From an uncultured Gammaproteobacteria bacterium (GTDB taxonomy: Bacteria; Patescibacteriota; Microgenomatia; UBA12405; JAHJSD01), in assembly GCA_964505765.1 (NCBI GenBank), contig CAZDJQ010000003.1:1-46565 (forward strand): a stretch of DNA of 46,565 nt, written 5' to 3'. Each line of letters begins with the position of its first letter. Positions within the stretch are counted from its first letter, which is position 1. The position numbers were made by a program, and so were the translations under genes. The notes under the pieces were generated by a model. That model was not told where the DNA came from. It ran no database searches and was given only the letters and a program-made list of their open reading frames with translations. Positions 37,101 through 46,006 of the stretch are shown piece after piece.

Positions 37101-40100
37101 TTAAAGCTCCCTTCCGCAATTTTTGCACCATCTCTCACCTACCGGGTTTTTATGCCCGCATTTGCAGGTTATGGTTTGTTCTTCCATTGATATCTTTTTT
37201 TGTTTGATATCTTCTTGTGGTTTTGTTTGCTTTCCAAGCCCGGCCTTGAGCAATGCTTTTGCAGCCCAATCCCGGACCTCTCTGTCCTTACTGACATCGC
37301 TTGTTGCCGCAGCAAGCGCTTTCCTGGCTTCAGGACCACCGATCTCCCCGAGCGCCCAGGCAGCATAGCCGGCGGCTTCCGGATCTTTATCATCAAGACA
37401 ATCTATTAAAACCTGAAGAGATCCCGGATCTTTAATATAGCCAAGGGCCCAAAGAATCGCGCTTCTTATTTTGGGGATACGCTCAACTCTCAAAGCTTTA
37501 ATGAGACTAATAGTGGCTCGTTTATCCCGAAGGAAACCAAAGAGACGGGCTGTTTCAAACCTCACCTCAGGATTGTGGTGAGAGAAAATACGGGAACATA
37601 TGTCAAAGGCTTCAGCACCTTTCAGTTTAAAGATTGCCCACATACAGGCATTCCTGGCAGCATAAGAATCAGAGACAAGACCCGGTTTTAACCATTCGCT
37701 CATAAGATCAATGTCCTTCGACTCATGTTTTGAAAAAGATTTTCCGGTTTCTGAGAAAAGTAATCTGCCAGCTGCAAGCCGGGGCGGTTCTTCCGGATGG
37801 CTGCCAAGCATCTCAAAAAGGAGACTTATGGCAGTAGGTTTGGTATGTATACCCATGACACGTTCACCAATATCATCGGGCTTAATTTCATTGATTCTTC
37901 CACTTCTTAATTCCTTTTCAAGAAAATGAAAGAAGGCCTTTTCTTCTTTCTGTGCAATTCCTCTTAACCTTGGTAAAACATCCTGGGCTGTTCCCGGTCT
38001 TAAGTGGGCTTGAGATTCCTTTAGTTTTTTTACGAATCCATCATCCTCCGGCTTTTTTACACTTAAATCCACCTTTTCCTCTTGAGCGGGTGGCTTTGTA
38101 CCCGGTCGCCTGCTCTTTGAGTTTTCCAGGGCTTCGGAGAGGAGTTCTTCTCGGGTTTTGGGAGTGTCTTCTGATTCTATCTTCTTTTCCGGTTTTTCAG
38201 CTTTCACTTTTATTTTAGTCTGAGAGACGTCATTTGTCTCTAAAAGCGATTGTTTTGCTGATGAAATCTCAGGTGTGCGAATGCCAATCAAATTCATTAT
38301 GTAGATGGCTCTCCTTCTACCCCCACGCTCACGCATTGACCCTGGCGAGCCCTCCCCGCACACGATCAGGGAACCTGTGGGATCAGTTGCAACAGATAGC
38401 AATTCCCCAGAGGTTGGGAAGTTTGTGACCTTCTTTCCGGTTAGCCGATCCCAAACGTCCAGACTGCCGTTATCGAGTGCACTTGTTGATACAATAAAAG
38501 CACCATCTGATGTCACTGCGCAGTCGGTGGGATTCCCGATTTCAATAGTGTACAACAAATTATAGGTCAAACGTTCCCAAACTTTGAGTGTATTATCCTC
38601 GCTTATCGAAATAATAAAGTTCCCATCTGGGCTTACCGCGCAGGAAACTACCCCAGCCGTGTGATCCTCAAGGGATCTGAGAAGCTTCCCAGCAATAGGG
38701 TCCCAGACTTTCAGGGTCTTGTCTCGACTAGCTGAAATAATCACGGAACCATCTGGGCTCACCACACATTTATAGATCCCATCGGTATGACCAGCAAGAT
38801 CTTTGATTTTACGCCCAGTAGCAGTATCCCAAAGAGAAAGAACACAGTCTTCGGGGCCTCCTGCTGAAACAATATAAGAAATGTCTGGACTTACAGCGCA
38901 ATCCCAGACACTATGACCCTTATAAGGTCGGATCGTACGAATTTCAAATTCCAGATTGGATTTCCAGATTTTGATGGTTCCATCGCCACTGGCAGAGATA
39001 ATGAGTGTGCCATCTGAGCTTATATCCAAGCCATTAATAGCATGAGAGTGGCCTTGGCTTATGCCCAGCGCTTCACGACCGCCCTCACGTTGGACAATTT
39101 CTGGAGTTACCTCAACGCCTAGAATTCTCAATTGATTTCCTGTCTGTGGATCCCAGAGCCGCAGCACGCAATCCTCAACACCTCCAGCGGTGACAACAAA
39201 TGAGCCTCGGGGACTTACCTTGCAATTCTTAACCTTATCAAAGTGACCTTGATCTTTGATCTTGGTGCGCAACTTATCTTTATCAGCTGTAGGCATTCGC
39301 CACATTCTTATCGAATTATCATCGCCACCAGAAATAATAAAGCAACTGTCTGGGCTTGCGGATACGCAGAATGGGTTTCCAGCATGACCACGCAATGTCG
39401 CCAAATCTCTACCCGAATCTATATTCCACACGATAAGAAAACCGGCTTTAGAGGCAGTGACGATGCTTGTCCCATCTGGGCTGACTGCACTATCCCAAAC
39501 ATGTGGCATACCACTAGCACATATGTTGCCGGGTAAAGTGTCCAAATGATTTCTAGTAGCCACATCCCAAACCACCAACCCCCCACCAATGATTGAGATA
39601 ATCCACCGCCCATCAGGGGTAAAAAAACAGCTGGTTGCTTTGCCGTATGGCCCTTTTAGGATTCGCATACACTCACCGCTGATTGCATCCCATAACCGCA
39701 GAGTCATATCTCCGCTGGCGGAGATTAACAGACAACCATCCGGGGAAAACCCACAGCTGAATACCATGTCGTAGTGTCCCTTAAGTGTCATGATACACGC
39801 TCCGCTTGCTACATCCCACACACGTAGGGTGTTGTCATCAGGATTACCATTATCTCCACTAGCTGAGACGATCAGACTACTATTTGGTGAAAAGTCACAT
39901 GCATTAATATTGCGTGTGTGACCTCGTAGCACCCTAACACACACGCCGCTTGCCGAATCCCACAAACGTAGTGTCTTGTCATCACTACCTGAAATGATTA
40001 AACGCCCATTTGGCGAGAATCTACACGCATTGATATAACCCGTGTGACCTTTCAACACTTGGAGACATTTCCCATTGGCCGCATTCCATACTCTCAGGGT

Positions 40101-46006: not shown

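Follow-up and report, generated by a model that had tools for sequence, protein, structure and literature searches.

Four-cysteine tails on two protein families of one operon

The window analysed here, a stretch of 46,565 nucleotides (contig CAZDJQ010000003.1), is taken up by one long minus-strand operon encoding ClpC-like AAA+ unfoldases and WD40 proteins, and the subject of this work is a small four-cysteine finger that stands at the extreme C-terminus of members of both families (Table 1). As the first-pass annotation of this DNA had described, the minus-strand open reading frames (ORFs) of three WD40 proteins (W1, W4 and W5) and of ClpC-like 2 end in such a finger, whereas the fifth tail that it listed, that of ClpC-like 1, is out of frame with its ATPase. 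All finger genes lie on the minus strand. A six-frame regular-expression scan for the strict motif C-x(1-4)-C-x3-N-x6-C-x2-C returned exactly 5 matches, solely at these five gene ends, against a chance expectation of 0.025 on average and 1 at most in 200 shuffles.

The frameshift in ClpC-like 1 falls at a run of five A residues (12071-12075), where one added A would restore KKKAKKICPSEDCG. This paralogue is also without most of its Clp_N region (742 amino acids against 868, with a partial Clp_N match), and its database copy (P0027), of the same length, has no finger. The frameshift could reflect an assembly error, decay of the paralogue or a tract prone to slippage.

W4 and W5 are tandem paralogues, 93% identical in their linker DNA (38125-38261 compared with 40953-41089) and 79% in their N-terminal regions, and the two ClpC-like genes, with their neighbours, represent an older duplication (73-78% DNA identity). 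The five fingers thus belong to two protein families, each with its own finger subtype, rather than to five independent events. The tandem copy comprises a recently duplicated unit of a DUF6572 gene and a WD40-finger gene, with near-identical DUF6572 proteins encoded at 40469-40774 and 42127-42450.

Table 1. Positions of the finger-bearing genes, their tails and the neighbouring genes discussed in the text (aa, amino acids; AF2, AlphaFold2)
Feature	Position	Strand	Description and basis
W1	7973..10570	(-)	WD40 protein, 865 aa, with 130-aa linker and finger; C-terminus TITCKCGYINSAGERWCKNCGRELK
W1 finger	7976..8041	(-)	WD40-type (C-x-C), in second module copy; motif scan, Pfam
W4	37101..40451	(-)	1116 aa; N-terminal helical region, two WD40 propellers, linker, HEAT repeats, short linker, finger (Pfam WD40; HEAT_2 in C-terminal part); C-terminus TITCKCGHKNPVGERWCKNCGREL
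W4 finger	37104..37166	(-)	WD40-type (C-x-C); motif scan, Pfam
W5	40799..42109	(-)	436 aa; N-terminal helical region, WD40 propeller, linker, finger; C-terminus TITCKCGHKNPAGERWCENCGRKIKYF
W5 finger	40802..40873	(-)	WD40-type (C-x-C); motif scan; Zn_Ribbon_1 22.0 bits; AF2 pLDDT about 75
W5 linker	40886..41104	(-)	Probably disordered, with short conserved helix REELLSEA (residues 377-384); AF2
ClpC-like 2	43400..46006	(-)	C-terminus KICKGCGTVNPASNKWCRKCGRDLK
ClpC-like 2 finger	43403..43471	(-)	Clp-type (CKGCGTVNPASNKWCRKCGRDLK); motif scan, Pfam, AF2, homologues
ClpC-like 2 linker	43487..43654	(-)	K/E/P-rich, probably disordered; residues 783-838 of 866 aa; AF2
ClpC-like 1	11973..14201	(-)	742 aa; C-terminus of ORF KKAKRYVRVKTAVQLMMPRPNGAANVGVNSNKHKGG, unrelated sequence
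ClpC-like 1 finger	11992..12075	(-)	Clp-type, out of frame with ATPase (KICPSEDCGAVNDASAKWCRKCGCELK); -1 frame after A5 run
CesT-like membrane protein	42468..43370	(-)	CesT/TY-Chap-like domain (CesT-like part residues 1-130) fused to multi-pass membrane region (Pfam CesT, CesT_Tir_1); between Clp and WD40 genes
Second CesT-like membrane protein	11064..11963	(-)	Adjoins ClpC-like 1; 62% identical to first copy
DUF4062-NACHT	34334..36664	(-)	STAND NTPase without repeats of its own; Pfam; core of operon, presumably served by WD40 proteins
TY-Chap1 and ClpP	24954..26015	(-)	Pair (TY-Chap1 25584..26015, ClpP 24954..25547), presumed proteolytic partner of Clp ATPase; Pfam; second copy 6248-7320
Partial second copy	6248-14201		ClpC-like 1, CesT-like membrane protein, 119-aa protein, W1, TY-Chap1, ClpP

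Predicted structure of the tails and their linkers

The long, charged and probably disordered linkers proposed in the first-pass annotation are borne out by both composition and modelling. The residues K, E, P, S, T, Q, D and R make up 0.71-0.82 of the linkers of W1, W5 and ClpC-like 2, and AlphaFold2 gives those of ClpC-like 2 and W5 a predicted local distance difference test score (pLDDT) of <50; in the same single-chain models the fingers, predicted as compact two-hairpin folds, reach pLDDT 75-84. The model of ClpC-like 2, computed from an alignment of 35 clade members, has a confident ATPase body, a linker at pLDDT 29-42 and a finger of about 80 with two short strands; in the 66-residue C-terminal stretch that spans the linker and the start of the finger, 82% of the residues are of these eight types. 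In the W5 model the propeller stands at pLDDT >90 and linker residues 336-408 at 24-39. A finger on a flexible tether is supported by these models, and the linkers, 50-130 residues long, are probably disordered.

A short helix, R-E-[EK]-L-L-S-E-A, is common to the W1, W4 and W5 linkers (about 40958-40981 in W5), and a comparable [DE]-E-x-L-Q-x-L-L is present in some Clp linkers from Bacteroidales. This helix may represent another linear motif common to the two families, recognised for example by a CesT-like chaperone that binds peptides.

Assignment to the Zn_Ribbon_1/DZR kind

The first-pass annotation had labelled the tails as RanBP2/NZF fingers, and this label does not hold. Scanned alone against Pfam, all five leave zf-RanBP unmatched even at E<=10, and the best-placed families are Zn_Ribbon_1 (PF13240, formerly zinc_ribbon_2) and DZR (PF12773). 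These are the top two families for the three WD40 tails and lie within the top three for both Clp tails, where DUF7577 is comparable or best (for the ClpC-like 2 finger, DZR 22.8 bits, DUF7577 21.6 bits and Zn_Ribbon_1 21.2 bits); across the five tails the scores stay below the gathering cut-offs (Zn_Ribbon_1 17.3-22.0 bits, cut-off 25; DZR 16.2-22.8 bits, cut-off 27.3). A search with a 44-residue tail alignment (99 candidates) led to small stand-alone PF13240 proteins at E>=0.087 and recovered neither Clp nor WD40 proteins; 12 of the 16 nearest small database proteins carry the PF13240 annotation.

In alignment, the tails display the Zn_Ribbon_1/DZR signature of two CxxC knuckles ~11 residues apart, an aromatic residue before Cys3 and CG after Cys4, following the common pattern CxxCG-x2-N-x6-aromatic-CxxCG-x2-L, with a first knuckle that varies among the five between C-x-C, C-x2-C and C-x4-C. 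The aromatic residue before Cys3 is a hallmark of Zn_Ribbon_1, and we assign the finger to this common bacterial family. Membership of zf-RanBP was rejected on the missing profile match and on the absence of its diagnostic Trp before Cys1: T, K or I is found at position -2 from Cys1, and it is Cys3 that a Trp precedes. The Cys/Asn spacing on which the RanBP2 label had been based is real, but it is the general spacing of zinc ribbons, with C-x-C in the WD40 subtype, and is not specific to RanBP2. With the eukaryotic RanBP2/NZF family (PF00641) the tails share the zinc-ribbon fold class, the spacing C-x(2,4)-C-x3-N-x6-C-x2-C and a weak match to ZNF265; they lack both the Trp before Cys1 and the Thr-Phe dipeptide with which NZF fingers bind ubiquitin, and the bacterial family fits them more closely. 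From typical Zn_Ribbon_1/DZR members they differ in having Trp or Tyr for the usual Phe, GR[ED]L after Cys4, a C-x-C first knuckle in the WD40 subtype and C-x2-C, C-x4-C or C-x7-C in the Clp subtype, and in being present as a single copy at the extreme C-terminus behind a long tether. Judged by sequence, each tail is a small bacterial zinc ribbon of Zn_Ribbon_1/DZR type, whose four cysteines presumably bind zinc.

When a profile of 18 tails was searched against the PDB, eL40 ribosomal zinc ribbons led the matches (E=0.004), and the RanBP2-type finger of ZNF265 (E=0.066) appeared alongside bL32, DZANK1 and others. Among solved structures, the nearest to the tails are ribosomal ribbons that contact RNA (eL40, bL32) and, at the margin, the ZNF265 finger, which binds RNA. 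This raises the possibility of a common anchor other than a protein: both tails might have one nucleic acid, membrane surface or small ligand as their shared target, or might be zinc or redox switches, such that their carriers would be co-localised or co-regulated without contacting each other. The lysine-rich linkers would suit such a role, as would the membrane components encoded alongside (the CesT-like membrane protein, and a further WD40 protein, W3, with a transmembrane segment). However, the similarity to eL40 is weak and is a fold signature only, the rare residues shared by the tails (Trp, Arg-Glu/Asp-Leu) make up no known RNA or lipid motif, and nothing in the operon indicates a nucleic-acid target. 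We consider a common anchor of this kind distinctly improbable.

Residues shared by the Clp and WD40 tails

Setting aside the ligands and the structural Gly/Asn, the two subtypes have in common the Trp before Cys3 (Tyr in some WD40 tails, Arg in a small number of the Clp ones) and, at the end of the protein, GR[ED]L(K). Both states are rare in generic ribbons: in a comparison set of 713 ribbons from 159 best-matching proteins, from which this WD40 family was excluded, the residue before Cys3 was Phe in 74% and Tyr in 11%, Trp occurred there in 2/713, and GR[ED]L followed Cys4 in 2/713. Among the best 150 of the representative matches in a library of 1.84 billion proteins, a single C-terminal ribbon was found solely in this WD40 family; these 150 are dominated by multi-ribbon proteins with additive scores, and single Clp-type tails score below the range that they cover. 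Recent gene conversion between Clp and WD40 tails was rejected, as their DNA differs throughout.

The first-pass annotation had also asked whether the tail might be a generic appendage with no link to these families. At the level of the superfamily it is generic, with 2460 library proteins at E<=0.001, yet the two subtypes are tied to these two protein families and, by their residue patterns, are sister forms.

A clade of ClpC-like ATPases with the tail

The Pfam domains of ClpC-like 2 are Clp_N, AAA, AAA_lid_9, AAA_2 and ClpB_D2-small, followed by the linker and the finger, and its Clp_N (residues 1-150), two AAA+ modules and D2-small domain mark it as a class I Clp/Hsp100 protein (ClpC/ClpA-like). 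It matches B. subtilis ClpC at E=1.5e-191, its LGV aligns with the ClpP-loop VGF of that enzyme, where the docking tripeptide of this class is [LIV]-G-[FL], and ClpP genes are present in the operon. ClpC-like 2 departs from ClpC proper in its M-domain: the region is ~20 residues shorter in the alignment with the B. subtilis enzyme, and the UVR domain (PF02151), associated with MecA/McsB regulation and present in most of the canonical ClpC matches P0040-P0120, is absent from the clade P0001-P0039. This clade is distinct, with identities of 50-100% as against 46% or less for canonical ClpC. The ORF, with a GTG start, encodes 868 amino acids; the identical database copy (P0001) starts two codons further on, at an ATG at 46000.

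Within the clade, 23 of the 28 nearest homologues (61-100% identity) carry the finger, with the consensus K-x-C-x(2,4,7)-CGA-x-N-x-AS-x-[KR]-[WR]-C-x-KCGR[ED]L-x directly before the stop codon. The finger-less members are P0018, P0020, P0022, P0023 and the frameshifted window paralogue P0027; the tail was found in 0 of P0029-P0039. It was likewise found in 0 of the 81 canonical ClpC proteins in the homologue list, and literature searches for a ClpC or other Clp ATPase with a C-terminal zinc ribbon returned nothing relevant, in keeping with the first-pass impression that such a tail is unusual. In a neighbour-joining tree built without the tail columns, all finger-bearing Clp proteins fall into one clade, with P0028 deepest and the finger-less P0018/P0020 and P0022 nested inside, which points to one gain of the finger and at least two losses. 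As read from this tree and the conserved tail, selection has maintained the finger in a single clade of Clp proteins.

Zinc modules on Clp unfoldases are known from the N-termini of ClpX (the zinc-binding domain, ZBD) and ClpE (a zinc finger), and the ClpX ZBD forms dimers and has both substrates and adaptors as ligands. The tail resembles these in being a Cys4 zinc module appended to a Clp unfoldase; those modules are N-terminal, directly attached and of other fold types, whereas the module described here is C-terminal, follows a linker of ~60 residues and sits on a two-ring ClpC/ClpA-like enzyme that keeps its Clp_N.

Clp and WD40 fingers across related loci

Related loci were retrieved through the Clp, CesT-like membrane and NACHT proteins, and their ORFs were classified by BLAST against the proteins of the window. 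A core of NACHT, Clp, NUDIX, TrkA_N-RyR, RelA_SpoT...RyR, TY-Chap1 and ClpP genes recurs, with single genes absent from some loci, in metagenomic contigs and metagenome-assembled genomes labelled Bacteroidales/Rikenellaceae. Nine loci on eight contigs (two in the window, and L001, L002, L003, L004, L005, L012 and L019) have one layout in common, in which a Clp finger, frameshifted in module 1 of the window, is followed by a CesT-like membrane protein and next by a WD40 protein ending in a finger that we call type A ([IT]xCKCG[HY]xN......[WY]CKxCGREL); W4 orthologues with the same tail are found in L001, L002 and L004. Together with the shared residues described above, these nine loci show a specific relationship between the tails of the two families and a link through their gene neighbourhoods, in support of the first-pass reading of a shared terminal module.

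The remaining lineages hold only parts of this combination. A Clp finger is accompanied in L009 by a CesT-like membrane protein and a WD40 ribbon of another type, ending in LRFNPF; in L010/11 by a 56-residue relic of the CesT-like protein and a different four-Cys WD40 ribbon, ending in IRLSPF; and in L095/96 and the deepest lineage, L093/94, by a WD40 protein without a finger and no CesT-like protein, with a stand-alone HEAT protein after the Clp gene in L093/94. The Clp finger has been lost in P0018 (L007/8/41), where the WD40 tail is finger-less as well, and in P0023 (L092), where the WD40 protein has the LRFNPF ribbon, and it is absent from the distant Clp of L064 (47% identity), whose WD40 protein has none; all three are without the CesT-like protein, full-length copies of which occur only in loci with a finger-bearing Clp. 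The WD40 type-A finger is thus absent from both sampled finger-loss lineages (P0018, P0022/P0023) and from L064, and it occurred without a Clp finger in 0 of the loci sampled. The relation is nested: the finger of the Clp protein arose first, the CesT-like membrane protein was added next, and the type-A finger of the WD40 proteins came last. Since some loci have a Clp finger and no WD40 finger, a strict one-to-one rule for the two was rejected.

These distributions also bear on whether the two tails are functionally linked at all. They might instead reflect two independent gains of a generic, promiscuous ribbon with local roles, such as capping a disordered tail, their resemblance stemming from common descent within one genome lineage. 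The huge Zn_Ribbon_1/DZR family occurs on many architectures, the Clp finger stands alone in four lineages, and tails have repeatedly been lost or broken (the window Clp1 frameshift, the replacement of Cys1 by a TGA codon in L019 and the P0018 and P0022 losses), all of which would suit such an account. It sits poorly, however, with two rare shared states, each at 2/713, with a WD40 subtype strictly nested within finger-bearing Clp loci, with the conservation of both subtypes across Clp identities of 69-100%, and with a second matched ribbon pair in related systems. Unlinked tails seem to us fairly improbable.

The broken tail of L019 belongs to a WD40 paralogue (8455-9474), in which the TGA (a stop at about 9471) replaces the codon for Cys1 of the finger (TTIT, the stop, then KCGHKNPAGMRWCKNCGREL). 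Selenocysteine was considered for this position and rejected: the downstream RNA folds weakly, at -8.7 kcal/mol, less stably than the homologous regions of intact genes, and forms no hairpin directly after the UGA. A nonsense mutation is the more likely reading.

A second matched ribbon pair

An independent counterpart comes from metagenomic sequences related to the NACHT protein, which carry a second kind of C-terminal module, P[LI]IVT[AG].D.G.G...RCPxC-x15-18-CPx2-4C-x-LRVN[PS]F. In L063 (2176-5817), L066 (401-9344) and L080 (3-5315) this module ends both the DUF4062-NACHT protein and a WD40 protein of one locus, encoded by adjacent genes in L063 and L080. Over 22 distinct loci in which both proteins are complete, the co-occurrence counts are 3/1/2/16 (Fisher one-sided p=0.024, uncorrected for phylogeny). 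Zinc ribbons that match between the C-termini of partner proteins thus seem to recur as a design in this family of systems. A longer variant (CPxC, then LRFNPF[IL]VDNR) ends the WD40-like partners in L009, L029, L034, L036 and L092.

Possible docking of a Clp protease to split WD40 sensors

Our preferred explanation, which we hold tentatively and would stop short of calling probable, is that the tails are tethered docking modules that link a dedicated Clp/ClpP protease to split WD40 sensors, in analogy to effector-associated adaptor domains. Docking would bring the ClpC-like unfoldase and the ClpP of the operon to the free-standing WD40 sensors of a split DUF4062-NACHT (NWD1/TEP1-like) system. 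Contact could be made either from finger to finger or through both fingers on one shared receptor, for which the CesT-like membrane protein, whose gene separates the Clp gene from the WD40 genes, would be the best candidate. From this tethered position, the unfoldase could act on the sensor, or on the NACHT assembly, to extract, reset or degrade it, and would thereby set the threshold of a response or execute it. We infer the physical interaction, as well as the direction and outcome of Clp action.

Docking is favoured because the pattern fits a published principle, in which small terminal domains common to the components of conflict systems, termed effector-associated domains (EADs), are proposed to recruit these components mutually by homotypic contacts (PMC8195603). 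EADs and bacterial Death-like adaptors of NTP-dependent conflict systems were described by Kaur et al. (PMC7159879, PMC8195603); 9 of the 12 described EADs are alpha-helical, and one Death-like adaptor is reported to be fused to a Clp-like ATPase (PMC8195603). Here too, one small terminal domain is found on different components of one neighbourhood, Clp and WD40 in nine loci, and a second ribbon type stands on NACHT and WD40 in the three loci described above. The difference lies in the kind of domain, as a zinc ribbon in an adaptor role was not found in PMC7159879 or PMC8195603, where ZnR is named only on DO-GTPases; an operon with Clp, NACHT, RelA-SpoT and RyR is mentioned in neither.

Several observations weigh against docking. 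The co-occurrence of the Clp finger with the WD40 type-A finger (counts of 9/4/0/3 for both, Clp finger alone, WD40 finger alone and neither) gives p=0.06, uncorrected for phylogeny, and the nine positive loci are phylogenetically close, so that we regard the co-occurrence as suggestive. The Clp finger is older than its putative partner and stands without a matching WD40 finger in four lineages (L093/94, L095/96, L009 and L010/11), while the candidate receptor is missing from the finger-bearing L093 and L095 and reduced to a relic in L010/11. In addition, Zn_Ribbon_1 ribbons are very promiscuous, many of the 2460 library proteins being multi-ribbon, and the WD40 subtype has an unusual first knuckle, C-x-C. 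The lone Clp fingers imply that pairing with a WD40 finger is neither the sole nor the original role of the Clp finger, and that its binding target is not solely a WD40 finger.

The properties of the enzyme would also suit a recognition tag, with the WD40 tails offering the Clp N-domain or pore a handle for picking out the sensors as substrates, and with the ATPase's own tail acting as a competing pseudo-substrate, an autoregulator or a regulator of ClpP docking, as it exits the D2 ring near the ClpP face. A linker with a terminal module resembles a degron with an initiation region; the Clp protein keeps its pore-loop tyrosines, both Walker motifs and LGV at the ClpP-loop position of ClpC, and ClpP is always encoded in the operon. 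Furthermore, the WD40 subtype is found only where the Clp subtype already exists, and ClpC-like 1 has lost both most of its Clp_N and, by frameshift, its finger. A tightly folded terminal zinc ribbon would, however, be a poor initiation site for an unfoldase, and the finger-bearing Clp lineages without a WD40 finger would still need explaining. On balance, we rate a recognition tag as unlikely.

If docking is taken one step further, tethered C-terminal zinc ribbons might constitute a hitherto unrecognised class of adaptors, matched between partners, in bacterial immune-type systems of the NWD1/TEP1-like (DUF4062-NACHT) kind, in which a ribbon code (Clp with WD40 here, NACHT with WD40 in relatives) would wire a ClpC-like/ClpP protease to split sensors of the STAND (signal-transduction ATPases with numerous domains) type, and regulated unfolding or proteolysis would set or execute the response. 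We consider this broader proposal possible but doubtful. If the tails are cognate docking modules, they would offer a simple, testable handle on the assembly of a multi-component bacterial system resembling nucleotide-binding leucine-rich-repeat receptors (NLR-like), show which sensor talks to which executor and how an AAA+ protease reaches an immune sensor, and extend the adaptor-domain principle, so far mostly alpha-helical and Death-like, to minimal zinc ribbons. The finding also defines a Clp/Hsp100 clade in which substrates or partners may be chosen through a module at the C-terminus, in place of adaptors for the N-domain and M-domain as is usual. Zinc-ribbon appendages, the adaptor principle and accessory zinc domains on Clp proteins are themselves already known, and what we describe here is a variant of these.

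Comparison with NWD1/TEP1 and TRIP13 systems

In common with the animal DUF4062-NACHT-WD40 proteins NWD1, NWD2 and TEP1, the operon has DUF4062, NACHT, an NWD1-like winged helix and WD40 repeats. It differs in that the WD40 repeats lie on separate paralogous polypeptides with an N-terminal helical region of their own and zinc-ribbon tails, and in that a Clp/ClpP pair is added. Given these animal proteins, the split form in bacteria could serve as a tractable model of how their WD40 sensors control the NADase-NACHT core. DUF4062 is described as a TIR-like NADase in a 2026 preprint (bioRxiv 10.64898/2026.05.01.722283), and a second 2026 preprint presents an anti-phage defence family of DUF4062 proteins; Clp and zinc are mentioned in neither.

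For the proposed action of the Clp protein, an analogy is available in TRIP13-HORMA of the cyclic-oligonucleotide-based anti-phage signalling system (CBASS), where an AAA+ remodeller from an immune operon acts on the sensor or adaptor and sets the activation threshold. The likeness is that of an AAA+ remodeller in an immune-type operon, and by analogy the Clp protein could reset or destroy sensor assemblies. Homology is limited to the AAA+ fold, and the TRIP13 match returned by PADLOC covers the ATPase core only; moreover, recognition in the TRIP13 system proceeds through the HORMA N-terminus instead of a zinc ribbon, and a protease is not involved.

Gene content of the operon and its relatives

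The operon extends over ~28 kb (17957-46006, minus strand) and, with the partial second copy, the window encodes five separate WD40 proteins. Its genes run in the order ClpC-like 2, CesT-like membrane protein, DUF6572, W5, DUF6572, W4, NUDIX, DUF4062-NACHT, TrkA_N-RyR, a 249-residue multi-ribbon protein, W3, RelA_SpoT-TPR-SLOG-RyR, TY-Chap1, ClpP, a PrsW-like protease, a trypsin-like protease, W2 and a TPR protein. Nearby, on the plus strand, lies a gene for an effector-type SLATT_1 protein with two transmembrane segments (4943-6025). DUF4062-NACHT is kept beside the Clp gene in L001-L012, L019, L092 and L093, and the TY-Chap1/ClpP pair is conserved in L007, L009-L011, L019 and L092-L096. PADLOC 2.0 matched no described defence system and gave domain-level matches alone (AAA+ core to PDC-M37B, DolB and TRIP13; NUDIX to PDC-S07; RelA-like to PDC-S33). 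Literature searches on TY-Chap/ClpP/NACHT, YbjN/CesT/ClpP/WD40 and RyR/SLOG/RelA/NACHT/Nudix returned nothing on this operon.

W3 (28824-31409) ends in a proline/lysine-rich linker, a transmembrane stretch and another ribbon, CPHC-x15-CPSC, and the 249-residue protein encoded upstream of it (31440-32189) consists of several CxxC ribbons; homologues of both recur in Bacteroidales loci (for example with tails LYKCPRCKSSFTLEQL). The stop codon of W4 abuts or overlaps the likely NUDIX start (37097-37138), with a 4-nucleotide overlap in L001 (19863-19866), which suggests translational coupling of the HEAT-containing WD40-finger protein with NUDIX. Finally, L005 (16451-16624) holds a 58-residue fragment with a W4-type finger at its end, and in L010/L011 the relic of the CesT-like membrane protein lies between the Clp and NUDIX genes (9355-10056 in L010); such accessory parts appear to turn over quickly.

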